DNA from: Escherichia coli
Lineage (GTDB): Bacteria > Pseudomonadota > Gammaproteobacteria > Enterobacterales > Enterobacteriaceae
NCBI RefSeq assembly: GCF_044324875.1
Contig: NZ_CP172185.1
Length of the DNA stretch: 64,000 bases
Direction: 5' to 3' (one strand)
The translations under genes and the position numbers were made by a program. Every line of letters starts with the position of its first letter. Position 1 is the stretch's first letter. The notes below the pieces were generated by a model. The model did no database searches, was not told where the DNA came from, and saw only the letters and a program-made list of their open reading frames with translations. This document shows positions 12,082-36,591 of the stretch, piece by piece.

Positions 12082-12157
12082 GCCCGGATAGCTCAGTCGG
12101 TAGAGCAGGGGATTGAAAATCCCCGTGTCCTTGGTTCGATTCCGAGTCCGGGCACCA
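12082..12157 (+). tRNA. pheU: tRNA-Phe (anticodon GAA)
   Basis: GCCCGGATAGCTCAGTCGGTAGAGCAGGGGATTGAAAATCCCCGTGTCCTTGGTTCGATTCCGAGTCCGGGCACCA; cloverleaf with GAA anticodon loop; pheU assigned from yjdC neighbourhood (sequence identical to pheV). Confidence 0.95.
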
Positions 12158-12354: not shown

Positions 12355-13617
12355 ATGGCACTGACTGACGCAAAAATCCGGGCTGCAAAGCACACTGACA
12401 AGGCTTATAAACTCACTGACGGGGCTGGCATGTTCCTGCTGGTACATCCTAATGGTTCCCGTTACTGGCGTCTCCGTTATCGCATTCTGGGTAAGGAGAA
12501 AACTCTGGCACTTGGTGTATACCCGGAGGTTTCTCTCTCCGAAGCTCGTACAAAACGGGATGAGGCCCGAAAACTGATTTCGGAGGGGATTGACCCTTGC
12601 GAACAGAAAAGAGCTAAAAAAGTAGTCCCTGATTTACAACTCTCTTTTGAACATATTGCACGACGCTGGCATGCCAGTAATAAACAATGGGCACAATCAC
12701 ACAGCGATAAGGTACTCAAAAGCCTCGAAACACACGTTTTCCCCTTTATCGGCAACCGGAACATCACAACACTCAATACCCCGGACCTGCTTATCCCTGT
12801 TCGTGCTGCAGAAGCTAAACAAATTTATGAAATCGCCAGTCGTCTGCAGCAAAGAATATCTGCTGTAATGCGTTATGCCGTACAGTCTGGCATCATCAGA
12901 TATAATCCTGCTCTGGATATGGCTGGCGCATTGACCTCTGTAAAACGACAGCATCGCCCCGCTCTTGATCTTTCACGTCTGCCTGAACTTCTGTCGCGTA
13001 TTAACAGTTATAAAGGTCAGCCTGTCACCCGGCTTGCTGTTATGCTGAATTTACTGGTTTTTATTCGCTCCAGTGAACTCAGATATGCCCGCTGGGCTGA
13101 AATTGATATTGACAATTCAATGTGGACTATTCCAGCCGAACGCAAACCTCTGCCAGGGGTAAAATTCTCACACCGGGGCTCCAAGATGCGAACACCACAT
13201 CTTGTGCCACTCAGCAAACAGGCTGTAGCCATACTGACAGAACTTCAGACATGGGCTGGTGAAAATGGTCTGATCTTTACGGGAGCACATGACCCGCGTA
13301 AACCAATCAGTGAAAATACCGTAAATAAGGCCCTCAGAGTGATGGGGTATGACACAACCAAGGAAGTCTGTGGCCATGGATTCCGGGCGATGGCGTGCAG
13401 TGCATTGATTGAATCAGGTTTGTGGTCCCGCGATGCTGTGGAACGTCAGATGAGCCATCAGGAGCGTAATGGTGTACGTGCTGCGTATATCCATAAAGCA
13501 GAACATCTGGAAGAACGTCGACTGATGCTACAGTGGTGGGCAGATTTTCTGGATGCGAACAGAGATAAGGGTATCAGCCCGTTTGAATATGCAAAGATTA
13601 ACAATCCATTAAAATAG
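12355..13617 (+). CDS. int: P4-type tyrosine integrase (island integrase adjacent to tRNA-Phe)
   Basis: 420 aa; MALTDAKIRAAKHTDKAYKLTDGAGMFLLVHPNGSRYWRLRYRILGKEKTLALGVYPEVSLSEARTKRDEARKL typical of P4-like integrase N-terminus; C-terminal catalytic region with HGFRA; located ~200 bp after tRNA. Confidence 0.9.
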   Translation: MALTDAKIRAAKHTDKAYKLTDGAGMFLLVHPNGSRYWRLRYRILGKEKTLALGVYPEVSLSEARTKRDEARKLISEGIDPCEQKRAKKVVPDLQLSFEHIARRWHASNKQWAQSHSDKVLKSLETHVFPFIGNRNITTLNTPDLLIPVRAAEAKQIYEIASRLQQRISAVMRYAVQSGIIRYNPALDMAGALTSVKRQHRPALDLSRLPELLSRINSYKGQPVTRLAVMLNLLVFIRSSELRYARWAEIDIDNSMWTIPAERKPLPGVKFSHRGSKMRTPHLVPLSKQAVAILTELQTWAGENGLIFTGAHDPRKPISENTVNKALRVMGYDTTKEVCGHGFRAMACSALIESGLWSRDAVERQMSHQERNGVRAAYIHKAEHLEERRLMLQWWADFLDANRDKGISPFEYAKINNPLK

Positions 13618-13650: not shown

Positions 13651-14068
13651 AACTGATTATTTTTCTTTGTAAATGATGACGAAGATTGATGTTCTGGCAA
13701 GTTACTCCGGCTTCCATTAAAGTCCCTTCGTCATGTTCTTCAGGCTATTTATGACTGTGATTAGCACCAGGAATATCTGGTTTCCATGAGAGCAGGTAAT
13801 AACCCCCGGTGTTTTCGGCTGTTCTGGTATCCTTGTCCAACGCAGGCAGTCATTATAAACGGTAAAAAATGTATTCACTGTTATGAAATCAATAGTCCTG
13901 ACGTACTGTTGAATGTGCTTGCGTTCTGAACCTTGTACAACCAGTACATTTGATACCGAATTATAAGCAAAACATTGCATCCAACTTTTTCAATATGGAC
14001 AATAGTTGTCCATATGGTGGTTTTATATTCGATAAATCAATGGATTTCATTGAGTCATAGGACTGGTA

Positions 14069-17000
14069 ATGGATGAAAATGCTTTAGGGTTTGCCTCATA
14101 CTGGCGCAACTCGCTTGCGGACGCTGAGTCAGGAAAGGGCAGTTTTGAACGGAAAGACGCCAAAAATTTCACTCACTGGCATGGGATAGCGGCGGGACGT
14201 CTTGACGAAGCGATTGTCAGTAAATTTTTTAAGGGAGAAAAAGACGATGTCGAAACGGTCGATGTCATCTTGCGCCCAAAAGTTTATTTCCGGTTACTGC
14301 AGCATGGTAAGGACCGTTCTGCAGGTGCGCCTGATATTGTTACCCCGATAGTGACGCCAGCCTTGCTAAGCCGTGAGGGTTTTTTATATCCGACGCCAGC
14401 GACCTCCATTCCCAGAGACCTGCTTGAACCTTTGCCAAAAGGAGCATTTTCGATTGGTGAGATTGGGCAGTATGACAAATACAAGACGACCCATACCACG
14501 TTCTCTATCAACTTTGATGACAGCGTTGATAAGACTGCCGAAACGGATGAAGAACGGGAAGAACGATATGCAGCCTTGCAGCAGGAGTGGCGTCAATATC
14601 TGGATGATTCAGAGAGGCTGCTGAAGAACGTTGCCGGCGACTGGATTAAAAATCCTGAGCAATATGAACTCGCTGAGCACGGTTATATTGTTAAAACGGC
14701 GCAATCTGGCGGTGCCAGTTTCCATATCCTTTCTCTTTATGATCACCTGCTTGTTTGCAATAAGGATGTGCCGCTCTTCAATCGATTCGCCTCGCGAGAG
14801 GTTCATGCTGCAGAGTCTTTGCTGGCCCCTGGAGCAAAATTCAGCGACAGGCTTGGACACTCCGGAGATAAGTTTCCGCTGGCAAAGGCTCAGCGCGATG
14901 CCTTAAGCCATTTTCTGGATGCTAAACATGGCGATATCCTTGCTGTTAATGGCCCTCCTGGAACCGGAAAAACCACGCTGGTGCTTTCTATCATCGCCAC
15001 GCAGTGGGCCAGAGCGGCTCTCGAAAAATCTGAGCCTCCGGTTATTATCGCGACTTCAACGAATAACCAGGCTGTAACGAACATTATTGAGGCATTCGGG
15101 AAAGACTTTTCGCAAGGTTCAGGTGCGATGGCCGGGCGATGGTTGCCAGAGCTGAAAAGCTTCGGCGCTTATTTTCCCTCAGGCAGCCGTAAAGCTGAAG
15201 CAGCCAAAAAATATCAAACTGAAGATTTCTTCAACCAGGTTGAGTCAAAAGAGTATGTAGAAGATGCACTGCTGTTTTATCTGGAAAAGGCTAAGGCAGC
15301 CTTTCCTGAAAAAGAGTGTTCATCCCCTGAAAAGGTCATTGAACTCCTGCATGGTCAGTTGGCAGCAAAATCCGAGCAACTGATAAGACTGAACGCAACA
15401 TGGCAAAAGTTAAGCCAGATTCGGGCTGCGCGTGAGCTTATTGCTAATGATATTGAGCAATATCTCAATAATTTAAATAAATTACTTTCCGGACAAGAAC
15501 AAAAAATCACTCTACTGAAGAGTGCTAAAACGGAATGGAAAAAATATCGCGCCGGTGAATCACTGATCTATTCATTATTTTCCTGGCTTCCGGCGGTTCG
15601 CAGTAAGCGACAGTACCAAATACAGCTGTTTCTCGAAGATAAATTAGGTGCGCTGATTGCAGGAAATCAATGGTCTGATCCTGAAACTATCGAACGTAAT
15701 ATTGATGGGCTGCTCAATTCCGCTGAGCGCGAGCAAACAACATACCGGCAGCAGATTGACTCCGCCCATGAAATCATTCTTAAAGAACAGCAGGCGGTTC
15801 AGGAGTGGCAGAGACTGGCTCTTGATTTAGGGTATGAGGGCGACGAGGAACTGAGCTTCTCACAGGCCGATGAACTGGCTGATACGCAGATTCGCTTCCC
15901 TGCATTTTTACTGACGACTCACTACTGGGAAGGTCGTTGGCTGATGGATATGGCCAGCATTGATGATCTGCAGGAAGAGAAGAAGAAAAAAGGCGCTAAA
16001 GGGGTAACCGCCCGTTGGCAACGTCGAATGAAACTCACTCCATGTGTGGTGATGACATGCTATATGCTGCCCGGCAATATGCAGATAAGTGAGCACAAAG
16101 GACAGCGTAAATTCGAGAAAAGTTATTTGTATGATTTTGCCGATTTACTCATTGTCGATGAAGCCGGGCAGGTGCTTCCTGAAGTGGCTGCTGCCTCGTT
16201 TGCATTAGCTAAGAAGGCATTAGTGATTGGCGATACGGAGCAGATCCCGCCAATATGGAGTATTGCTCCTGCGATTGATATCGGTAACATGCTGGCGGAA
16301 AAAATTCTGTCTGGCAGTACGCAAGAAGAGATTACCGAGAAATATACGGCAATCGCAGACCTTGGTAAAAGTGCCGCATCTGGCAGCGTTATGAAAATAG
16401 CGCAGTTTGCTTCGCGCTATCAATATGATCCCGAACTGGCTCGTGGTATGTACCTATATGAACACCGCCGGTGCTACGACAATATTATTGGATACTGTAA
16501 TACGCTCTGCTATCACGGTAAGTTGTTGCCTAAAAGAGGGCGTGAAGAGAGCAATTTAATGCCCGCAATGGGGTATCTCCATATTGATGGTAAAGGAGAG
16601 CTGGCAAGTAGTGGAAGTCGATATAATTTGCTTGAGGCTGAAACGATAGCGGTCTGGTTGGCAGAGAACCAGCAAAATATTGAAGCGCATTACGGTAAAT
16701 CGCTTCATGAAGTTGTCGGTATTGTGACGCCTTTTAGCGCTCAGGTATCCACTATCAAACAGGTGCTGGGCAAACAAGGTATCAGTACAGGCACGAATGA
16801 AAAGTCGCTCACAGTGGGCACCGTGCACTCTCTTCAGGGAGCGGAAAGAGCGATTGTGATATTCTCGCCAGTCTATTCAAAACATGAAGACGGCGGGTTT
16901 ATTGATAGCGATAACAGCATGCTGAATGTTGCAGTCTCCCGTGCGAAGGACAGTTTTCTGGTCTTCGGCGATATGGACCTGTTTGAGGTCCAGCCAGCCT

Positions 17001-17584
17001 CATCGCCACGGGGATTACTGGCAAAATACCTCTTTGAGTCAGAGAAGAATGCGCTCTCTTTTGATTATAAAGAGCGTAAGGATTTAAAAACCGCCGGGAC
17101 CAAAATCTACACACTTCATGGTGTGGAGCAACATGATAATTTCCTGAATCAGACATTTGAAAATACCAGTAAACACATCACGATAGTTTCTCCATGGCTG
17201 ACCTGGCAAAGGCTGGAGCAAACCGGTTTTCTTGATTCCATGATTGCGGCGTGTTCACGTGGAATTAACGTCACGATAGTCACTGACAGAAGCTACAACA
17301 CTGAACATAATGATTTTGAGAAGCGAAAAGAGAAGCAGCAGAACTTTAAAGCGGCGCTGGAGAAACTGAATGCGCTGGGTATTGCTACAAAGCTGGTAAA
17401 CCGTGTTCATAGCAAAATTGTTATTGGTGATGATGGTTTGCTGTGCGTGGGATCGTTCAACTGGTTTAGTGCGACACGGGAAGCGCGATATGAACGATAC
17501 GATACATCAATGGTTTATTGCGGTGATAACCTGAAGGGTGAGATTGAGGCTATTTATAATAGTCTTGAGAGGCGGCAGGTTTAG
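14069..17584 (+). CDS. Large fusion protein: unknown N-terminal domain + Upf1-like SF1 helicase core + C-terminal PLD-family (single HKD) nuclease domain; candidate defence protein
   Basis: 1171 aa; Walker A GPPGTGKT (~aa 295), Walker B/motif [11 protein letters not shown] (~aa 695), motif V-like [11 protein letters not shown], motif VI-like VAVSRAKD, then HSKIVIGDD (HxK(x)4D) near aa 1114; first cargo gene after island integrase. Confidence 0.9.
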
Positions 17585-17600
17585 AGCAGGAATGGTGAGT

Positions 17601-17637
17601 AGCCATCTTACCGATCGTTTTCGAGCGTAAGATGGCT
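17601..17637. other. 11-bp inverted repeat hairpin between convergent genes (possible bidirectional terminator)
   Basis: AGCCATCTTAC ...15 nt... GTAAGATGGCT between stop of helicase-PLD gene and stop of minus-strand sulfatase-family gene. Confidence 0.35.
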
Positions 17638-17692
17638 GAATGGAATGGCTATTATTGCACAGTCCTTAATTATAACATTCATACCGACATGA

Positions 17693-19192
17693 TTATCTTC
17701 TGCCCGGAAGAATCAGAGGCTGTGGTTTCAGACTGTCTGCCGGTACATTCCTGTCTCCGTTAAAAACAATAACGGGTTCATTATCTTCGTCTGTCAGCGG
17801 ATTGAATGGCGGTATATTTTCAGTACGAATGCCGGTCAGCCACTGAAAAATACCTGCGAAATGACGGGCACTGATTTTTCTGCTGACGGACTGATGAGAC
17901 GTGATGTCACTGGCGGTAATAATCAGGGGAACGCTGTAGCCTCCTTGTATATGGCCATCATGATGAACAGGATTAGCACTGTCGCTGACCGACAGACCAT
18001 GGTCAGAAAAGTAAAGCATGGCAAAATGACGGGAGTGCCGGCGAAGGATACCATCAAGCTGACCGAGAAAGTTATCCAGTTTACTGATGCTGGCGAGGTA
18101 ACAGGCAATCTTTCGGGGATACTGCTCCAGGTAATGATTCGGCCAGGAGTTAAGTCGGTCACACGGATTCGGATGAGAGCCAATCATGTGCAGGAATATC
18201 ACCTTCGGAGAGGATTTATCCGCCAGTGCACGTTCTGTTTCCTGTAACAACAACATGTCATCCGTTTTACGGGAAGCAAAGCTGCCTTTCTTGAGGAAAA
18301 CGGTATGCTCCGCATCAGAAGCAATAACAGAGATGCGTGTATCATGCTCCCCCAGTTTTCCCTGATTGGATATCCACCATGTGCTGTATCCTGCTTTTGC
18401 TGCCAGCGCCACCACGTTGTTGCCGGAGTCAGGGTTCTGCTCATAGTCATAAATCAGTGTCCGGCTCAGGGAAGGTACGGTACTGGCTGCTGCCGATGTA
18501 TAGCCGTCAATAAATAAACCGGGAGCCGTATTCAGCCATGGTGTGGTTGGCACGGGATAGCCATATACCGACATATAATCCCTGCGCACACTCTCACCAG
18601 TAACGATAACAATCGTGTCATACAACGGTGTTCCCGGCAGGATTTTCCAGTTGTCAGCCCCGTGCTGACTCAGTTGTTTATAACGCTGCATTTCACGCAA
18701 TGTGTCAGTTGTTCCCACAACAATTCCTTTAACCATCCGCAACGGCCAGCTGTTTACAGAGCATAATACGAACAGCAGCAGTGCCAGCCAGTTACGGTGA
18801 CCGCGGTGGTGTGTCCGCCAGAAAATCACCATGAATACCAGAATCGCGGCACTGACCAGAAAATGATAAACAGGAATCATCCCGGTAAACTCTGCAGCCT
18901 CATCAGCCGTGGTCTGCAGCAACGCGACAATAAAACTGTTGTTGATTTTACCGTACGTCATACCCGCAGGCGCATACAGTGCACAACAGAACAGAAATAA
19001 CAGCGTTGTAATGGATGTGAGGGTATTTCTGTGTGCAAGGAGCAGAAGGAGAAACAGAAGCAGCACATTTCCTGTGGCATTCTTCTCAGTGTATCCGCAT
19101 GCAATTGTGGTTATCACAGAAATAACAAAAAAGAATAAAAACAATAAAATCCGGGGTGTGTCGCCCGGACAAAACAGTTTTCTGATATTCAT
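17693..19192 (-). CDS. Sulfatase-family integral membrane enzyme (phosphoethanolamine-transferase-like)
   Basis: 499 aa; hydrophobic N-terminal TM region followed by soluble domain with HMIGSHPNPCDRL-type motif typical of alkaline-phosphatase/sulfatase superfamily transferases. Confidence 0.55.
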   Translation of the reverse strand: MNIRKLFCPGDTPRILLFLFFFVISVITTIACGYTEKNATGNVLLLFLLLLLAHRNTLTSITTLLFLFCCALYAPAGMTYGKINNSFIVALLQTTADEAAEFTGMIPVYHFLVSAAILVFMVIFWRTHHRGHRNWLALLLFVLCSVNSWPLRMVKGIVVGTTDTLREMQRYKQLSQHGADNWKILPGTPLYDTIVIVTGESVRRDYMSVYGYPVPTTPWLNTAPGLFIDGYTSAAASTVPSLSRTLIYDYEQNPDSGNNVVALAAKAGYSTWWISNQGKLGEHDTRISVIASDAEHTVFLKKGSFASRKTDDMLLLQETERALADKSSPKVIFLHMIGSHPNPCDRLNSWPNHYLEQYPRKIACYLASISKLDNFLGQLDGILRRHSRHFAMLYFSDHGLSVSDSANPVHHDGHIQGGYSVPLIITASDITSHQSVSRKISARHFAGIFQWLTGIRTENIPPFNPLTDEDNEPVIVFNGDRNVPADSLKPQPLILPGRR

Positions 19193-19373
19193 CGGAGTAT
19201 ATCGACAACATTATTATGAAGAGAACAGGATAATAAAAATCAGAAATTATCTGTAAAACAGATAACAGACAACCCTGCAGCAATAGACTGCAGGGTGTTT
19301 CTGTTTAATTGCAGAAGATATACAATTATATTAATTACAGAATATTCGTGATTATCTCTCGGGAACAGTGTTG

Positions 19374-20114
19374 TCAGAAGTTATAAGTCACACCAAGCAT
19401 GATGTCATGACTTTTAACATCAACTTCTGACTTATATTTATCGCCCCACTCGTCCTTGTAACTCACACTGCTGTCACCTGCATCAAGATAGCGATAGCTG
19501 AGGTCCAGAGCGATATCCGGGGTTACGTCATAGCGGACACCCGCGCCAAGGTTCCATGCGAAGTTGTCAGCAGAGCCTGAACGTGACAACGATTCGCGAC
19601 CACTGCTTCCGTACTCATAATCCCAGGTACTGATACCGGTTGTTTTCTGGTGAATTCTGGCGTAGCCAATCCCTGCAGATATCCAAGGTGTGAATGCGCT
19701 GTCATTCCGGAAGTCATAGTACGCATTCAGCATTAGTGTGTTGACTGACACCTCATTCTTCAGGTCATCACGCCAGTAACCACCTGACCAACTGTCTTTA
19801 TCTACGTTATACTTCGAATCAGCTTTTCCACGAGCGTAAAACTCCAGTTCTGTACGAACCGGAATACTGAACTGCGGATAAAAATCATAACCAGCCGCGA
19901 TACCACCACTGAATACCGTATCATGGTCATCGCCGCCTTTATACTTTGACGTTTCTTCCTCATCTCCTGACAGGAAACGCTGGTCTGAAAGTGACACCAC
20001 AGAGGTACCGGCTTTACCGGTCAGATAAAAACCGCTTTTACCTTCCTCAGCACCTGCATTTGCTGCAAATACACAGGCTGCGGCCACCACTGAAACAGCA
20101 AAAACCTTTTTCAT
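19374..20114 (-). CDS. Outer-membrane beta-barrel protein (OmpA-like transmembrane barrel family)
   Basis: 246 aa; signal peptide MKKVFAVSVVAAACVFAANA; alternating aromatic/hydrophobic strands; C-terminal ...GVTYNF terminal Phe. Confidence 0.6.
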   Translation of the reverse strand: MKKVFAVSVVAAACVFAANAGAEEGKSGFYLTGKAGTSVVSLSDQRFLSGDEEETSKYKGGDDHDTVFSGGIAAGYDFYPQFSIPVRTELEFYARGKADSKYNVDKDSWSGGYWRDDLKNEVSVNTLMLNAYYDFRNDSAFTPWISAGIGYARIHQKTTGISTWDYEYGSSGRESLSRSGSADNFAWNLGAGVRYDVTPDIALDLSYRYLDAGDSSVSYKDEWGDKYKSEVDVKSHDIMLGVTYNF

Positions 20115-20569
20115 TTCAATTATCTCCGTTATTGCTCCGTTGCTGCAAGCAGTACTCAGTGCATTTTAAAACCCGCCATGCTATAGCCTCAATCGAATAA
20201 AATCGATCGAATCGATCGATGATATCGATCGTCATTAACCAGAAATTTTTATCGTATTCAGTCAGCACAGACACAACAAATGCATGCCATGCAGGCAGCC
20301 ATGCCCCGTCGCGACAGATGGTAGCAGTGGGCTGGCGAAGAGCAGAATTAATAAAATTTGTTTATTCTGTCAGGAGATAAGGTGTCACCTGTTCATGAAC
20401 ACAATTAAGGAAGAGACATACATGAGCTGACTGGCAGTCCAGAGTGCATGCGGTTACAAGCCGGAAAGGTGAACCGGTATAACCAGTGAGCAGAGTTTGT
20501 GAAGGGGGGATATAAAAAAGCCCACTGCATGGCTGCGGGTAAAGAGTCAGTTATTTCCGGCGTTTTTCA

Positions 20570-20950
20570 AGGTAGTTGTCGCCTGATGTAATAAAATTAC
20601 GTTATGCCGCTTCTTTTTCTGGATTCAGATAAACTGCCTGAATGAGTTCCCAGTCACGCAACTGTTTGCTCCAGCGCTCAGGATGACGCTTGCGAGCTTC
20701 GCGATAAACTTTTTTTCTGGCTTCCAGTATTTGTGCATCAATTCCGCGATGGCGTTCATCCGGAGTAACATACTTAATACCGCTGTGCTTGTGTTCCAGG
20801 TTGTACCATTACGTGAACTTGCTTAACCAACTTCTGGCTTCATCTATGGTTCGAAAACCATTCTCCGGCCACCATGAACAATACTTAATCGTCCGGAAGA
20901 GCGATTCGGAATAAAGAAGTGTTACTGGCAGTTCTTTCATCGCATCAGTG
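20570..20950 (-). pseudogene. IS3-family transposase C-terminal remnant
   Basis: Minus-strand translation ...GIKYVTPDERHRGIDAQILEARKKVYREARKRHPERWS... and ...NGFRTIDEARSWLSKF... resembles transposase C-terminus; no intact ORF. Confidence 0.45.
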
Positions 20951-20969
20951 AAAACCAGCAGGGCACTGC

Positions 20970-21391
20970 TCACCAGAGCAACACAGGAAAGTGAACCCGA
21001 ACAAAAGTTCCTGTACCATTTTCTCCCAGCAGACGTGAGGCTTGTTCCAGTGACGCTGGTATACGTCCCAGCCGGACATCAAGTGCGCCGATGGCTATTG
21101 CCTGAAATCGCATCGTACAGCAAATCACCAACAGGACACCGACAGACATTAAAGGTAACCCCCTGTAATCCAGTAGTTCCGCCAGCCAGCGGTCATTTAG
21201 GGAGTCAGAAAACCAATCGCCAGAATCGTGCCCGGAAAGGCATAACCCAGCGACGCCCCTCTCATCACACCGCGCCTGAACAGTGGCATAGCGTTGAGGA
21301 ATTCCGGGCATTCCAGACTACGAGCAGACTGACAAAAATTACGACAAAGCGTTGAAGGAAGCCAGCGCGCGGACTGACAGGACTTTACCAT
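20970..21391 (-). pseudogene. Degraded ABC-transporter permease fragment
   Basis: Fragments with EAA-loop-like sequence (IPASLEQASRLLGENGTGTFVRVHFPVLL) in two frames; no intact gene. Confidence 0.4.
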
Positions 21392-21440
21392 AAAAACACA
21401 GGCTAACCGCGCCTGCGTTTTTAATGACGGATAAACAGAA

Positions 21441-23420
21441 TCAGGTGCCGATTATGCCGCCGTCGGCTTTTACGATAACGACAGTTGAGGAGCGCGGACG
21501 ACCAGCCTTATCGCCGTCAGGCCAGCTTGATACTGCCGTCGGATGCTGCGGATCGCTAAGCCCTTCGCTTGGCTCGCCAGGGTGCTGGATGTTAATAAAC
21601 AGCGTCCGGTTATCCGGAGTGAACGCGATGCCGGTGATTTCGCAGCCGCGCGGGCCGGTCAGGAAGCGGCGGAACTCATTGGTACCGGGGATCGTCGCCA
21701 CCATCTGGTTGTTGCCCATGCCTTTGTAATCTTTACTATTGATGGTTGATGACGACACGTCGGTCTGGATCCATAGCACGCCGCGGTGATCGAAGCTCAG
21801 GCCATCGGCGCTGCCGAATTCCGCCCCCTTCATGCTGCCTTTGGTTTCCGGTTTGTCCGTATCGGTGCGACCGCCCATCACAAGAATATCCCAGGCAAAC
21901 TGCAGCGCGGTCGGGTCACCGTTATGCTCCAACCAGTGAATGATGTGGCCGTAAACGTTTTTGGCGCGCGGGTTGGCCGCATCCACTGGCGCTTTTCCTT
22001 CCTTACCGCGATCGCTGTTGTTGGTGAGCGTGCAGTAAACGCTGCCGGCGTGATATGGATCGACCGCAATCCACTCCGGGCGGTCCATTTTAGTGGCCCC
22101 CACGGCGTCTGCCGCCAGACGGGTTTTAATCAACAGGTCGCCCTGGTTTTCAAACCCTTTACTGGCGTCGAGCCCATTTTGTCCGAACACCAGCGGTAGC
22201 CACTCGCCTTTGCCGTCGTCGTTAAATTTCGCCACGTACAGAGTGCCTTTTTCCAGCAGGTGCATGTTGGCTTTGCGATCCTGCGGGTTGAATTTTCCTT
22301 CCGAGACAAATTTATATATGTATTCGAATTTCTGGTCATCGCCCATATAGACCACAACGCGGTTATCCGGGGCAATTGTCACCGCTGCGCCTTCGTGTTT
22401 GATGCGACCAAGCGCGGTGTGCTTGCGCGGCACTGAATGCGGATCGTATGGATCGATTTCCACCACCCAGCCGAAGCGGTTCGGCTCGTTCGGCGTGGCG
22501 TCGACGCTGAACCTTTTATCCACTTCGTTCCAGCGGTAAGAGTCGTCGCTCCCGCTGATACCGTAACGTTTTTCCAGCGGGTTCATCTCTGCTTTTTTTA
22601 CGAAAATATCGGACCAGTTCTCTTCACACGTCAGATAGGTGCCCCACGGCGTAAATCCGTTGGCACAGTTCTGCATGGTGCCGAGAATGATTTCGCCTTT
22701 CGGATCGTCAACTGTTTGCATCAGTGGGTTATGCAGCGCCGGACCGGTGATTTTCATCGGCGTGTTAACGGTGATGCGGCGTGCGAAAGATGACGGGCGC
22801 ACCACTTCCCAGCCCAGGGGCACTTTTTTTACTTCAATGACCGACACGCCCATCGCGTTCTGGCCTTTAAGAGCTTTATCGGCGCTCCAGTTGGCATCGC
22901 CATCTTTAAACAGTAGACCGTTATCGATGTATTCATGGTTTATGGCAAGCAGGCCGTGATCGGAGCTGTTCCCGCCCTGCGGCAGGCTAAACCACGCCAT
23001 GCCGTCGTGGTGCATCCCGGCCTGCGCCGCCTGTTCTTCCGTGGTGTTGCTACCGTCGGTTTTAAAAACCGGCAGATTTCCGGCAATCCCGGTGGCGTCG
23101 CCCCATTTGTAGAAGGGCTTCGCGATGTATCCTTCCGGCACGATAACGGTATCTTCCGTGGAAACCGGCAGGCTGGTGAAACCGAGCGTCGTCGCTTTGC
23201 CGAGGTTACCGCTTGCTTTGGAGACCACTTTCGCCAGCGCGTTTTCCTGTTTCAGCAGAAATGGGAACGCTGCCGCGGCACCGGCGACCGTGCCGGCCTG
23301 TAACAGACGGCGGCGTGACAAATAAACTTCCGCCACCTGCGAAAACGCGCGGTTATCGCTCGGGTTACTGATTTCTTCACTATGCTCACGTTTGAATAAA
23401 GTTTTTAACGGTCTGCCCAT
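21441..23420 (-). CDS. Tat-secreted PhoX-like (DUF839-type) phosphatase
   Basis: 659 aa; twin-arginine signal SRRRLLQAGTVAGAAAAFPF; size and composition consistent with PhoX family; family call not verified. Confidence 0.5.
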   Translation of the reverse strand: MGRPLKTLFKREHSEEISNPSDNRAFSQVAEVYLSRRRLLQAGTVAGAAAAFPFLLKQENALAKVVSKASGNLGKATTLGFTSLPVSTEDTVIVPEGYIAKPFYKWGDATGIAGNLPVFKTDGSNTTEEQAAQAGMHHDGMAWFSLPQGGNSSDHGLLAINHEYIDNGLLFKDGDANWSADKALKGQNAMGVSVIEVKKVPLGWEVVRPSSFARRITVNTPMKITGPALHNPLMQTVDDPKGEIILGTMQNCANGFTPWGTYLTCEENWSDIFVKKAEMNPLEKRYGISGSDDSYRWNEVDKRFSVDATPNEPNRFGWVVEIDPYDPHSVPRKHTALGRIKHEGAAVTIAPDNRVVVYMGDDQKFEYIYKFVSEGKFNPQDRKANMHLLEKGTLYVAKFNDDGKGEWLPLVFGQNGLDASKGFENQGDLLIKTRLAADAVGATKMDRPEWIAVDPYHAGSVYCTLTNNSDRGKEGKAPVDAANPRAKNVYGHIIHWLEHNGDPTALQFAWDILVMGGRTDTDKPETKGSMKGAEFGSADGLSFDHRGVLWIQTDVSSSTINSKDYKGMGNNQMVATIPGTNEFRRFLTGPRGCEITGIAFTPDNRTLFINIQHPGEPSEGLSDPQHPTAVSSWPDGDKAGRPRSSTVVIVKADGGIIGT

Positions 23421-27748: not shown

Positions 27749-29833
27749 TTACGCCTGACCGGTGTCTCTGGTGACATATTCCGGAGCTCCGGAGAGAGTA
27801 AAGGTAACGCGATCATCGGCAGAAGCATCTCCATACTGCAGATGCCCGTCGTTGGGGATCATGGCCAGTTTGCCGTAATAGCGATACACATTGTATTCAT
27901 CCTGTGTATAGCCAAAGAAGGACTGATTATTCAGTTGTGAACCCGACAGGCTGACAAACTCGCTGGCAAGAAGATGACTTCCCGTATTATCCAGTTTGTT
28001 CGCGTCAATCAGCAGATTATTACCGGCCGAAATTCTGGCATCCCCCCCTGTTGCACCAACATCGACGCGTGTTGTGCCAGTCAGAAATTTCCGGGTGGCT
28101 CCCTTTTCAGTCGGAACGGCCCATGCCTCAAAACCACCACCGGCAGTACCGCTCCAGGACTTCACATAATATCCCCATCCATTTTCACCTAAATCGCCCA
28201 CTCTGACTGAAACAGAATTTACACCATCAGGTACTGCGACATTCTCAACCGGAATGTATGATTTTGTCTCATTTATACCCTCCCGCTGATTCAGTAAATG
28301 TCCGGTTCTGATGGTGATATCACCGCGGGTGGTTTCGATATTCCCGGAGGTATTAATCACTTCAGCATTCGCGGCACCACTGACATCTTTCTGCATCACC
28401 AGGCTGTAACCCGCCAGCATATCGCCGTGATGGTTCCGGATGGTGCTGGCAAACAGCGAGAGGTTATTGCCCGCATACAACAGTGCGGTGTTAATGACTG
28501 CCCCGGCGACCGTTAACACCAGACTACCCGTCGTGCCGGTAAAACCGTCGAGAGTGATATCTCCCCTGCTGGTCAGGCTGACGTCCCCGCCTGCCTGCAG
28601 GCTGCCGCTGGCATTCATCGCAATCCCGCTGCCGCTCAGTGCCGTGGTGCCGTTGCCGGCGGTCAACTGGCCATTGTTGGTCAGCCTGCCTGCAGCATTC
28701 AGCGTGATACCGTTGCCCTGCAATGTGGCGCCATTGGTAATATCACCCTGGCTGCTGACGGAGAGTTGTTTATTCGCGGCGATAACGCCCTGTGCGGTCA
28801 AACCACGTGTGAGCTTCAGCGTCAGGTTACCGAGTGCAACCAGCTGGCCCGCGCCGCTGAGCGAGACCATTTCAGCAAGCATATCACCGCCGCTGAACAC
28901 CTTCCCGCCGGCGTTGTTCAGGCTGTTCCCTTTTATTGTCAGGCCCTGATTACCCAGCAGCGTGCCGCTGTTGGTGATGGTCTGCGTGTTGACGTTCAGT
29001 TGTGCAGCCTGGAACAGGCCACGGTTGGTCAGACTGTTACCTGTGAGCGTTGCCTGATTCGCCGCCATCACAGTGCCATTACCGGCAAGCTTCGCCACGT
29101 TCAGCAGCAGGTCAGTGGCCTGTAGCCAGCCACTGCCACTGTAGTCCGGCGTGGTGAACGTCAGCTCACCGCCGGAAAGAATCTTGCCACTGTTGTGGGC
29201 CTGCGTTGCCGCGCTGAGCGTGGTTTTACCGTTGCCCTGAATGGTGCCGTCATTAGTCAGCACAGGTGCAGAAAGCGCTGATACGTTCTGACTGAGAAGC
29301 ACACCGCTGGTCTGGTTGGTCAGGGCATTCAGCAATGTAAGAGTCAGCCCGCTGTCGCCCTGCACACGACCTGAGTTGGTCAGCGAACTGGCGGTGATTC
29401 GGTTATCCGCCCCCTGAAGCTGCCCACTATTGCTGATGTCTCTGGCGTTGACGTTTAATGTACCGCCTGTCAGCATTTTACCGTGCTGTTGCAGATTACC
29501 ACTGAGTGTCACATTCAGGCTGTTAACACCACTGATTTCGCCACCGTTGCTGAGCGAATCACCATTCACTTCCAGCGTCTTCGCGCTGATTAATCCCTTG
29601 TTACCCAGCACTTTCCCGGTAAGGCGGGCATCGCCCAGGGCGGTAATTTTGCTGCCGGTGGCAGCAATAACATCGCCACTCAGGGTCAGAGCCAACTCCA
29701 GCGCACTCTGAACAGCACCGCTGCTGGTCAGGCTGCTGGCATCCAGAGTAATGTTCTGCCCCTGAATCCGGCCGCTGTTGGTCACATCTCCTGCGCTCAG
29801 CGTCAGCGAGTTCTGGCTCGATCCGCGCACCAC
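27749..29833 (-). pseudogene. Fragment of a large filamentous-haemagglutinin/CdiA-like repeat protein (two-partner-secretion exoprotein), truncated at both ends
   Basis: 694 aa of degenerate ~20-aa repeats rich in TLSG/LTNSG/IQGNG/NAL motifs; no signal peptide or TPS domain; 3' end abuts IS66 copy 1; 5' end abuts the GC-rich block. Confidence 0.6.
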
Positions 29834-33405: not shown

Positions 33406-34725
<1,320 letters not shown>

Positions 34726-35136
34726 GATGAACTCCGAAATTGAGGAAGCCGAAAATTAACAACTGTGACACATCGTGTATTCTCATCGTCGGTTGCTCAA
34801 TTACGTTATTTCACTCAGCGATTGAGAAAATGCTCAAATGTGAGCCATCTCGCAAATAAAACTATTTTAAATATCTCGCTTCGCGCGCGTATAGAGTACA
34901 CTTCCTGGGGAATTCAGGTGGGCATAGCGAATTAAAATGCCGGTTTTGTCACATTGCCTGTCTGCCAAAAAATTAGCGGCGGATGGCGGCTCAACGCAAG
35001 TGATACAGGCCTTTGCTTCGAGGATCACAGAAGTAAAAAAACATAATTACTTAATTTAAAAACGTAATAGATTCTTCCATGTCAACTGTGTCAGAAAGTG
35101 TTTCACCTACACAAAACAAACCGGAGTCTGCTTAGA

Positions 35137-36591
35137 ATGAGTAAAAACATAATGCACAGTCGGCATGATGAATATCATAAATTAACCCGTGGAGAACGAA
35201 TTGGTTATGGCATGGGCGACTTTGCGCAAAACCTGGTTTTCGGCACAATTGGGGGTTTTCTGGCTTTGCATATGCTGACGGTAAATACCATCAGCACGGC
35301 AACGGCAGGCTTTATTTTTCTTTTTGTCCGCATAATTAACGTGTTTTGGGATCCGATGGTCGGCACCTACGTGGATAAACGAACCTCGAAGGCAGGGAAA
35401 TATCGTCCGTGGCTGTTACGAGCCGGCGTGCCGCTGGTGATCCTCTCGGCATTACTGTTCGCGCCCATCCCCGGAGTGAAAGGTTCGGTGGCTTTCGCCT
35501 TTATTATTTATCTGGCGCTGGACCTGGTTTATTCCTTAGTCAATATTCCCTATGGCTCGCTGAATGCGTCGCTGACCCGCGACCCGGAATCGATCGATAA
35601 ACTGACCAGTACCCGCATGATGCTGGCCAACAGCGCCAACCTGCTGGTCTATACCCTGTTCCCGATGTTTGTGCAGATGGCGGCGCCGAAAGATCGCAGC
35701 CTGAAAGACACCGGCTTTTTTGGCCTTGAGCTGAATATGGGGAATTATGCCGATCCGTCGGCAAATTACGCCTGGTTTGGCGTGTACGCCATCTATATGA
35801 TCATCGGCGCGGTGGCTCTGTTTATCTGTTATAAATTCACCAAAGAACGCGTTGTCGCGACCGCCGAGCAGACCGCCAACGTCAAAACCACCGACCTTTT
35901 CCACGAGCTCCGACATAACCGCCCGCTGGTTATTCTGGGCATGTTCTTTATGCTGGCCTTTACCTTCATGTTCTTCATGAACACTGTTAACGGCTTCTTC
36001 AACCAGTACGTCGTCGGCCACTCCGAATGGATGGGCGCGGTGGGTCTCGTCGCGTCTATTCCCGGCATCGCCTTCCCGATTTTCTGGCCGAAACTGAAAA
36101 AAATCTTTGGTAAAAAAGGCTTCTTCCATCTGTTCCTCGCCATGTTTATCGTCGGCGAACTGCTGACCTACGTCTGGTCCCGCGAAGGGATGCACGACGC
36201 CCTGTGGCTGGCCTACATCGCCACCTTTATTAAACAGTGGGGCTTAACCTCCGCCACCGGCTTTATGTGGGCGCTGGTACCGGAAGTCATCGCGTACGGC
36301 GAATTAAAATCTGGCAAACGCAATGCCGCCATTATCAATGCCATTATGGGACTCTTCTTCAAGATCGGCTTCACCATCGGCGGCGCGATCCCGCTGTGGC
36401 TGCTGGCGGTGTATGGCTTTAATGAAAGCGGCGCCGTGCAGAGCGCCAGCGCCATCGACGGGATCATTATGACCGCGGTGTGGATCCCGATCGCGCTGGC
36501 CGCTATTTCGATGGTGATTATCCAGGTTTATCCGATCTCCGATAAACATGTTACCGACATCAACCGTCAGCTGGATGAGATCCGCGTGTAG
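35137..36591 (+). CDS. GPH-family glycoside/xyloside:cation symporter (XynT/YagG-like)
   Basis: ORF 35098..36591; start taken at MSKNIMHSR...; 12-TM-type protein with GPH N-terminal motif GYGMGDFAQNLVF. Confidence 0.7.
   Translation: MSKNIMHSRHDEYHKLTRGERIGYGMGDFAQNLVFGTIGGFLALHMLTVNTISTATAGFIFLFVRIINVFWDPMVGTYVDKRTSKAGKYRPWLLRAGVPLVILSALLFAPIPGVKGSVAFAFIIYLALDLVYSLVNIPYGSLNASLTRDPESIDKLTSTRMMLANSANLLVYTLFPMFVQMAAPKDRSLKDTGFFGLELNMGNYADPSANYAWFGVYAIYMIIGAVALFICYKFTKERVVATAEQTANVKTTDLFHELRHNRPLVILGMFFMLAFTFMFFMNTVNGFFNQYVVGHSEWMGAVGLVASIPGIAFPIFWPKLKKIFGKKGFFHLFLAMFIVGELLTYVWSREGMHDALWLAYIATFIKQWGLTSATGFMWALVPEVIAYGELKSGKRNAAIINAIMGLFFKIGFTIGGAIPLWLLAVYGFNESGAVQSASAIDGIIMTAVWIPIALAAISMVIIQVYPISDKHVTDINRQLDEIRV

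Follow-up and report, generated by a model that had tools for sequence, protein, structure and literature searches.

An OpgE-like phosphoethanolamine transferase gene and a Hek/Hra-type adhesin gene as the probable integrase-proximal backbone of an Escherichia coli pheU island carrying Mokosh type II

The two genes that occupy positions 17,693 to 20,114 of the Escherichia coli window, by which the whole analysed stretch of 64,000 nucleotides is meant, are an already known pathogenicity-island pair of this species, comprising a Hek/Hra adhesin and an OpgE-like phosphoethanolamine (PEtN) transferase. Most probably, these two ordinary surface genes are not accessories of a defence gene but make up a conserved backbone, next to the integrase, of pathogenicity and defence islands associated with tRNA genes. 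The result matters mainly as a correction: the neighbouring helicase-PLD gene, which the original prediction treated as a 'defence candidate', encodes Mokosh type II, a system already known and made up of one gene, and the pair, as a fixed backbone of E. coli tRNA islands, would have to be discounted, both genes included, in neighbourhood-based defence discovery.

This region of the window is an E. coli pheU tRNA island. The tRNA-Phe gene (pheU), the attachment site of the island, was located by ARAGORN at 12082..12157 (+) and is preceded by dsbD and dicD, flanks that agree with the pheU layout of annotated genomes. It is followed by the P4-type tyrosine integrase of the island at 12355..13617 (+), which displays the Pfam domains Arm-DNA-bind_3, Phage_int_M and Phage_integrase. 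The stretch from integrase to transferase (13674..17688) is a variable cargo slot, delimited by alignment with 'empty' loci and filled here by the MkoC cassette: the alignment to the loci of ATCC 8739, KOL-1 and LR14 ends at about 13664-13673 and restarts at 17689, and the slot measures ~266-275 bp in these strains as opposed to 4.0 kb in the window. Other strains have this slot empty or filled by an IS or a TPR gene. The window was searched for a direct repeat of the 3' end of the integrase beyond the outer-membrane protein (OMP) gene, and none is present; such a repeat follows the OMP gene at four other loci (L005, L007, L015 and L017). A stretch at 20605-20808 (-) resembles the tail of an IS3-family transposase without any Pfam match, and no claim is attached to it. 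Screening of positions 17000-21500 against Rfam yielded only a chance match to rli40, far below threshold (26.7 bits versus 100) and situated on the terminator hairpin described below.

The OMP gene (19374..20114, minus strand) is an open reading frame that starts from ATG and encodes 246 amino acids, and the corresponding CDS of near-identical genomes is named 'outer membrane protein' in RefSeq. The outer-membrane barrel that had been predicted for it is borne out by a Pfam OMP_b-brl match (5.9e-22) and by the AF2 model (pLDDT 87.4), which comprises an N-terminal signal-peptide helix and 8 strands and for which Foldseek retrieves NspA, OmpA, Ail, OmpX and OmpW. Judged by its sequence, the gene represents a hek/hra allele, encoding an adhesin-invasin, and would be expected to confer the adhesin phenotype of this family. 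Its product shares 95.9% amino acid identity with the Hek-locus protein that heads the leuX pathogenicity island of UTI89, from which it differs by ~10 residues, although the UTI89 gene resides at leuX and that of the window at pheU; moreover, the exact sequence is named 'Adhesin' in UniRef. Hek has been listed for the leuX islands of UTI89, RS218 and 536 as well as for the pheU island of CE10 (PMC7545054).

The protein family in question encompasses Hek/Hra1 of ExPEC and EAEC, Hes of the STEC LAA island, Hra2, Tia of ETEC and PagN of Salmonella, members of the Hra family being outer-membrane proteins of about 25 kDa that are ~65-90% identical to one another. Size, signal peptide, 8-stranded barrel and loop-focused variation are shared between the OMP and its Hek/Hra1 relatives, and hek/hra1 also takes the same place, directly after the integrase and transferase genes that head tRNA-linked pathogenicity islands. 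Proteins annotated as Tia are 63.9-64.6% identical to the OMP. Because identity to a Hes-like protein, P0010, which fits the published hes primers, is only 86.2%, the OMP is assigned to the Hek/Hra1 type; the alternative that it is Hes itself was rejected on this ground and on the primers, of which hes_det1 has no site even when 3 mismatches are allowed, while hes_det2 fits with a single mismatch. Variability among homologues peaks in the signal peptide and at the hairpin tips (residues 39-64, 95-124 and 154-185, more weakly at 215-224), while the core of the barrel is conserved. Through their long hypervariable extracellular hairpins, published members of the Hra family bring about haemagglutination, autoaggregation, adherence and invasion (PMC5539235).

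A sigma-70-like promoter candidate for the OMP gene (TTGAGG-18-TAAAAT, 9/12 consensus matches) was found by consensus scan at 20163..20192 (-), and its TAAAAT element is kept in all aligned alleles. Just upstream of it, a block of three GATC sites with spacings of 13 and 9 bp (20205..20230), lying at -116, -103 and -94 relative to the OMP gene, constitutes a candidate Dam/OxyR-type operator. The block is kept upstream of the tia, KOL-1 and Salmonella alleles, where the surrounding DNA is not alignable, and is lacking from the UTI89 hek allele in contrast to that of the window. It matches the OxyR consensus at 14/20 positions, equal to the genuine agn43 operator and reached by ~1% of shuffles; its core is identical to the agn43 GATC pair at 19/22 positions, and the local alignment between the two beats 1000/1000 shuffles. 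Like the hek block, the agn43 (flu) operator contains three clustered GATC sites with one pair 13 bp apart. On the other hand, its second spacing is 19 bp instead of 9 bp, and its sites lie downstream of the start site, whereas the hek candidate block is located upstream of the -35 element in ambiguous orientation. Dam/OxyR phase-variation operators with a relation to phages are those of gtr and opvAB (PMC2909390). A scan of species-representative genomes for the block motif returned 8 matches, 7 of which were judged irrelevant, six from their record titles and one, L029, from its ORFs, and the Yokenella match lies upstream of another small secreted protein. No published report of Dam/OxyR-type epigenetic control of hek, hra or tia alleles was found; these alleles may be subject to it.

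The transferase gene (17693..19192, minus strand) encodes an intact YjgX-family, OpgE-like PEtN transferase of 499 amino acids, read from an ATG and named 'phosphoethanolamine transferase' in the RefSeq annotation of near-identical genomes, which hold both CDSs of the pair just as they had been predicted. A PEtN-transferase-like membrane enzyme, as originally proposed, with a periplasmic catalytic domain of the sulfatase fold, is indeed indicated by Pfam, which matches the Sulfatase family at 1.3e-36 (126.9 bits) and EptA_B_N at 23.6 bits versus a cut-off of 22.3. Five hydrophobic segments within residues 8-154 are helical in the AF2 model (pLDDT 89.6) and represent five transmembrane helices. 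When this model was submitted to Foldseek, E. coli EptC emerged as the best solved-structure match (4.3e-20, TM-score 0.72 relative to the target), and ~550 columns were aligned with full-length MCR-1 and EptA. Residues E200, T238, H340, D397 and H398 align with E246, T285, H395, D465 and H466 of MCR-1; these positions, i.e. the Thr nucleophile and the residues of the Zn site, are unchanged across 49 homologues. Thus fold, Thr nucleophile and Zn ligands are shared with EptC/CptA, EptA and MCR-1, LPS PEtN transferases of the alkaline-phosphatase superfamily whose structures are solved, though at an identity of 16-22%. A sigma-70-like promoter candidate of the gene (TTTACA-16-TATTAT, 10/12 consensus matches) lies at 19230..19257 (-), where the sequence is conserved at other E. 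coli loci.

Of OpgE and YhbX, the K-12 paralogues compared directly, OpgE (YbiP), the PEtN transferase of osmoregulated periplasmic glucans (OPGs), is the best full-length match and shares the architecture of the window protein, being 31% identical to it over 493 aligned residues that take in the membrane domain (E = 3e-76, 237 bits). By comparison, YhbX reaches 105 bits in the catalytic domain only, and CptA, EptA and EptB reach <=107 bits. Orthology to OpgE was nevertheless rejected: given 31% identity and an island-borne position at pheU, as opposed to the core location of opgE at ~851 kb in K-12 beside ompX, the gene is a paralogue. The same family includes YjgX of K-12, encoded in KpLE2 at leuX likewise after a P4-type integrase and with 91.7% DNA identity; however, K-12 yjgX is a frameshifted pseudogene, truncated at the 5' end and without an OMP gene beside it, while the window copy is intact. 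Deletion of yjgX in K-12 gave no phenotype (PMC4808223), a result that is uninformative because the K-12 copy is a pseudogene.

Regarding the distribution of the pair, a transferase gene match was detected in 2913 genomes, of which 1450 hold the gene in full length, and the junction of transferase and OMP gene occurs in 1450 of 5426 complete E. coli genomes, so that a PEtN transferase of this kind is present in about one quarter to one half of E. coli genomes, depending on whether truncated copies are counted. Since about half of the E. coli copies are truncated or disrupted, selection on the transferase gene is conditional. The pair resides at pheU, at leuX and, with tia as the OMP gene, at selC, and pheV has been reported in the literature as a further site. 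It is also found in Salmonella; on Salmonella and metagenome contigs, it is kept at 54-58% (transferase) and 51% (OMP) identity. Both genes are subject to purifying selection (dN/dS 0.09-0.25 for the transferase and 0.09-0.31 over the pair), which together with their length and strong domain matches argues against chance open reading frames.

The persistence of the tandem raises the question of whether transferase and barrel form a coupled two-gene module, in which the enzyme would decorate the adhesin, or the glycan or LPS surrounding it, for assembly, display or activity. No genome has the 5' end of the transferase gene without the OMP gene beside it (1450 full-length copies, 1450 junctions), the tandem order and a gap of ~180-210 bp are retained even on the divergent Salmonella and metagenome contigs, purifying selection acts on both genes, and core-genome opgE likewise adjoins a small barrel gene, ompX. 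Protein targets of such enzymes have precedents in PptA, which acts on Neisseria pilin, and EptC, which acts on FlgG of Campylobacter. On the contrary, the two genes appear to be separately transcribed, as the OMP gene is followed by a hairpin resembling an intrinsic terminator (CCCTGCAG..CTGCAGGG with a T-rich tail behind it; 19272..19296, minus strand), which comprises 10 pairs, 6 of them G-C, is conserved across E. coli loci and precedes the separate promoter candidate of the transferase gene. Moreover, the transferase stays 93-97% identical whichever OMP allele (64-96% identity) accompanies it, and hence the two proteins do not co-vary. Many strains carry an intact OMP gene beside a broken transferase gene, transferase homologues of <=50% identity and a Providencia OMP homologue are unpaired, and Hes or Hra1 on its own was enough to give HB101 the respective phenotypes (PMC5539235). 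Adjacency down to ~51-58% identity could reflect functional coupling rather than mere co-inheritance, yet a coupled module is on balance unlikely. A more specific form, namely a single surface-remodelling module in which an agn43-like Dam/OxyR switch would control the adhesin while the enzyme modifies the adhesin or the envelope, is held to be slightly less likely still; if true, the islands in which defence systems gather would be headed by a module whose phase-variable changes of the cell surface bear on host adherence and possibly on the adsorption of phages.

We infer that the transferase, an inner-membrane enzyme of the YjgX clade, acts on the periplasmic side, where it passes PEtN to a glycan of the envelope: Thr238, set in the Zn site formed by E200, H340, D397 and H398, would take the phosphoethanolamine from phosphatidylethanolamine and hand it on to the acceptor. 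With OpgE as the best characterised relative, the initial description of such enzymes as modifying 'LPS or periplasmic glucans' was a fair one, but an identity of only 31% does not allow the acceptor to be transferred from OpgE by homology. Osmoregulated periplasmic glucans or a similar glycan are tentatively put forward as the acceptor, something else, including a protein, is conceivable to a comparable though smaller extent, and the LPS core or lipid A is a rather doubtful candidate.

Assignment to a named LPS-modifying enzyme would carry a further implication, since an EptA-, EptB-, EptC- or MCR-like LPS PEtN transferase would lower the envelope charge and provide resistance to polymyxin and cationic peptides, making the gene a horizontally carried resistance or virulence trait. 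Besides the common fold and catalytic residues and the top structural match to EptC, some database homologues bear the label 'lipid A phosphoethanolamine transferase'. However, the curated NCBIfam cut-offs are missed by far for CptA (106.9 versus 404), EptA (56.7 versus 561), EptB (49.6 versus 493) and the MCR families (<=34.5 versus cut-offs >=1075), and the named equivalogs EptA, EptB, CptA/EptC and MCR were rejected on these scores. In addition, EptA, EptB, EptC and MCR resemble the window protein in the catalytic domain only, while the alignment with OpgE extends through the whole protein and takes in the membrane domain, which helps to select the substrate. Over half of the E. coli genomes carry the gene, truncated copies counted, and it is not known to be linked to polymyxin resistance. 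A resistance-type LPS transferase is accordingly considered quite improbable.

The helicase-PLD gene next to the pair (14069..17584, plus strand) encodes a full-length MkoC, the anti-phage protein of Mokosh type II: the PADLOC MkoC model scores 1694 bits and aligns residues 1-1169 with model positions 1-1135 of 1136, and Pfam recognizes AAA_11, AAA_12 and PLDc_2. A single gene constitutes the Mokosh type II system (bioRxiv 10.1101/2022.05.11.491447), and both genes of the pair are outside its gene set. The co-location noted in the original prediction is correct; the MkoC gene ends 108 nt before the transferase stop codon on the opposite strand, and the two genes are therefore convergent. The homology between loci breaks exactly at this stop codon. 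MkoC adjoins the pair because the ~4-kb stretch from integrase to transferase is a replaceable cargo slot. The pair is distributed independently of MkoC, with MkoC occurring at leuX without the pair and the pair occurring elsewhere without MkoC. Neither protein matches any of 5027 PADLOC models (E <= 0.01), and a comparison of both with PHROGs returned no defence model but only function-unknown phrogs and a weak Lom match. For these reasons, i.e. the single-gene nature of the system, the lack of a PADLOC match and the independent occurrence, the pair was rejected as a component of Mokosh type II.

This leaves the functional tie to the defence gene that had been suggested, according to which the pair would add surface-level anti-phage protection by masking or altering receptors and thereby complement the helicase-PLD protein within one defence locus. 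Phage receptors can be changed by envelope-modifying enzymes, and guilt by association is not zero, because pair-headed islands often carry defence cargo, which besides MkoC includes type I R-M, Dpt, SIR2 and TerB-N/helicase genes. Despite the junction with MkoC in 665 genomes, the hypervariable OMP loops and a possible phase-variation operator reminiscent of the phage-related gtr and opvAB (PMC2909390), the proposal is highly improbable and finds no support, because MkoC is self-sufficient, defined and validated as one gene, the pair is autonomous and separable, being convergent with MkoC, furnished with its own promoter-like sites and terminator and present at 1450 junctions of its own versus 665 with MkoC, the OMP belongs to a characterised family of host-cell adhesins, PADLOC matches are lacking, and the substrates of OpgE, the closest enzyme with a known function, are periplasmic glucans, which are not exposed to phages (PMC3818809).

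A statistical link, which runs through the island, ties the transferase to entry by the urinary tract in bacteraemia. A GWAS of bloodstream infection had earlier flagged this 'putative opgE' beside integrases and pap (PMC8946752). Finally, a tblastn search of plasmids, prompted by the possibility that the transferase is the Shigella O-antigen PEtN transferase (Opt), disclosed only a 51-53% identical paralogue on pO104_H21-type plasmids, along with weak matches to CptA and MCR.

The window DNA is E. coli chromosome, with identity of up to 100% to many complete genomes, and both genes of the pair named in the original prediction were borne out, at the coordinates given there, by open reading frames with matching Pfam domains. 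A minus-strand ORF of 499 aa (17693-19192) carries a Sulfatase domain (1.3e-36) with an EptA_B_N membrane domain N-terminal to it, and a second minus-strand ORF of 246 aa (19374-20114) encodes an OMP_b-brl barrel, i.e. an outer-membrane protein (OMP). The gene order dsbD, dicD, tRNA-Phe (12082-12157), P4-type integrase (12355-13617), helicase-PLD gene (14069-17584, plus strand), transferase and OMP therefore places the pair in a pheU genomic island, at the end next to the integrase. The helicase-PLD and transferase genes are convergent, with 108 nt between the end of the former and the stop codon of the latter. Taken as a whole, the finding is real but ordinary: the way the island is built brings a known adhesin gene and an annotated OpgE-like phosphoethanolamine (PEtN) transferase gene next to a defence system that is known and consists of one gene. 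What remains of interest is which acceptor this very common accessory enzyme uses, and a possible epigenetic switch on Hra-family adhesins.

The neighbouring helicase-PLD protein is MkoC, recovered at full length by PADLOC (1694 bits). Mokosh type II was described as a one-gene system that requires both the helicase and the PLD site (bioRxiv 10.1101/2022.05.11.491447), and neither protein of the pair matched any PADLOC model. Of 5426 E. coli genomes, 888 contain MkoC, and in 665 it forms the junction with the transferase; in the remaining matches to this junction, homology ends at the transferase stop codon. Moreover, 'empty' loci contain about 270 bp in place of the 4.0-kb cassette at 13674-17688, the corresponding position is taken by a TPR gene at selC and by IS2 in K-12, and strain ESC818 harbors MkoC at leuX amid HNH, restriction, TIR and type I R-M genes, devoid of the pair. 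The MkoC cassette occupies a slot of about 4 kb, with exchangeable content, between integrase and transferase. Given the independence of MkoC and the pair and the variability of the slot, their co-location represents a cargo slot next to a backbone that stays constant rather than genes that work as one unit. Hence, the gene calls and the proximity originally noted stand, while the speculative surface-level contribution to defence is not supported, in view of the single-gene nature of MkoC, the replaceability of its slot and the lack of PADLOC matches for the pair.

Cargo following the OMP gene in these islands is often defensive, comprising type I R-M, Dpt (DptFGH), SIR2 and TerB-N/helicase genes, so that an association with defence does exist for the island as a whole; it carries nothing specific on transferase or OMP. 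In four sampled loci from other strains, about 180 bp of the integrase 3' end are repeated between the OMP gene and the defence cargo (L005, 7970-8152; L007, 8609-8794; L015, 10620-10805; L017, 11963-12128), an arrangement which suggests that islands accreted in tandem or that cassettes were exchanged. The window has no counterpart of this repeat after the OMP gene and shows unannotated DNA, an iron-ABC pseudogene and PhoX in its place. Past about 27.7 kb it departs from both close genomes to which it was aligned (strains 26561 and EC21Z-147) and is made up of IS elements and metabolic genes in mosaic arrangement. The point of divergence coincides with the start of a 694-aa ORF (27749-29833), a CdiA-like fragment that contains haemagglutinin repeats.

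The transferase possesses five hydrophobic helices at its N-terminus, and its structural model (pLDDT 89.6) matches the periplasmic domain of E. coli EptC (4e-20), full-length MCR-1 and EptA. The PEtN-transferase catalytic set is complete (E200, T238, H340, D397, H398), with no change at these residues in 49 homologues, and the protein scores far under each curated NCBIfam cut-off for CptA, EptA, EptB and MCR. Of the K-12 paralogues compared, OpgE aligns over the full length (31% identity, 237 bits) and YhbX over the catalytic domain only (105 bits), and the K-12 counterpart is the truncated and frameshifted pseudogene yjgX behind the leuX integrase. Intact alleles are under purifying selection (dN/dS 0.09-0.25), with a full-length copy in only 1450 of the 2913 genomes that contain a match. 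OpgE transfers PEtN from phosphatidylethanolamine to osmoregulated periplasmic glucans (OPGs; PMC3818809), and a bacteraemia GWAS had already picked up the island gene, as a 'putative opgE' beside integrases and the pap operon (PMC8946752). The putative acceptor of the island enzyme is a glycan at the periplasmic face, with OPG-like glycans being given the largest share. A paralogue of 51-53% identity is encoded on large STEC virulence plasmids (pO104_H21, 34132-35667, locus L009; and locus L020), where it adjoins DUF2569 and thermonuclease genes without an OMP partner.

The junction of the transferase 5' end with the OMP 3' end occurs in 1450 of 5426 genomes, a count identical to that of full-length transferases, and the pair was found again at pheU, leuX and selC. 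Between islands (the window versus loci L005, L006, L008 and L015 for the pair), the transferase is conserved at 93-97% and the OMP at 64-96% on the amino acid level, compared with about 68-94% for the integrase DNA; this contrast would imply that OMP alleles were exchanged or that the transferase segment has recently spread from island to island. The tandem order is kept in Salmonella and on metagenome contigs (transferase 54-58%, OMP 51% identity) and is no longer seen for transferase homologues at or below 50% identity, nor for the OMP homologue of Providencia. Separate transcription of both genes is inferred from what lies between them, namely a terminator hairpin that is conserved (19296-19272) and a site resembling a promoter (19257-19230). 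In the K-12 core genome (locus L019, 850450-852597), ompX, the gene of a small barrel with 8 strands, and opgE converge at a distance of 48 bp, which parallels the island combination of Hra barrel and OpgE-like enzyme, possibly by coincidence.

The OMP gene represents one allele of hek/hra, a known adhesin-invasin gene. Its product shares 95.9% identity with the OMP in the equivalent position of the UTI89 leuX island, 86.2% with the Hes-like protein P0010, whose N-terminus and loop match published hes primers, and about 64% with proteins annotated as Tia. These values match those among family members, as Hes was reported to be 86% identical to Hek and 65% to Tia (PMC5539235). In a review of E. 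coli islands, Hek is listed as cargo of the leuX islands of UTI89, RS218 and 536 and also of pheU and pheV islands in other ExPEC strains (PMC7545054). In the LAA island, hes lies about 3.3 kb from the integrase next to pheV (PMC5539235), which leaves space for exactly one transferase gene. The exact OMP sequence occurs on at least 1000 contigs under the UniRef name 'Adhesin'. Its AlphaFold model (pLDDT 87.4) comprises a signal-peptide helix and eight long strands and matches NspA, OmpA, Ail and OmpX in structure searches, and variation among 25 E. coli family members is focused at the signal peptide and the hairpin tips 39-64, 95-124 and 154-185.

Just upstream of the hek promoter, a conserved block (about 20202-20254) features three GATC sites (20205-20230) with spacings of 13 and 9 bp, situated about 100 nt ahead of the OMP start (at -116, -103 and -94). 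The block is kept upstream of the tia, KOL-1 and Salmonella alleles amid flanking DNA that is not alignable, is absent from the UTI89-type upstream region, and occurs in its window-type variant in 109 genomes. GATC pairs in the OxyR half-sites of gtr are likewise spaced 13 bp apart (PMC2909390). The block core is identical to the agn43 GATC pair at 19 of 22 positions, with a local alignment better than 1000 of 1000 shuffles, and its OxyR consensus score of 14/20 equals that of the genuine agn43 operator, a value that about 1% of shuffles also reach. Judged from sequence, the block is a candidate phase-variation operator of the Dam/OxyR type; the searchable literature yielded no report that hek, hra or tia is under Dam/OxyR control. 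When species-representative genomes were scanned, one further block came up in a relevant context, on an island of Yokenella upstream of a small secreted protein gene, and the element may constitute a portable regulatory unit of such islands. In Yokenella regensburgei (locus L034, 4181-4804), the triple-GATC block precedes the 154-aa secreted protein by about 140-160 nt, and the island appears CP4-like from its ORF translations (DUF932, antirestriction-like and RadC-like genes). Elsewhere in the window, three GATC sites fall within 30 nt at one place only (36462-36489), inside an MFS_2 transporter ORF.
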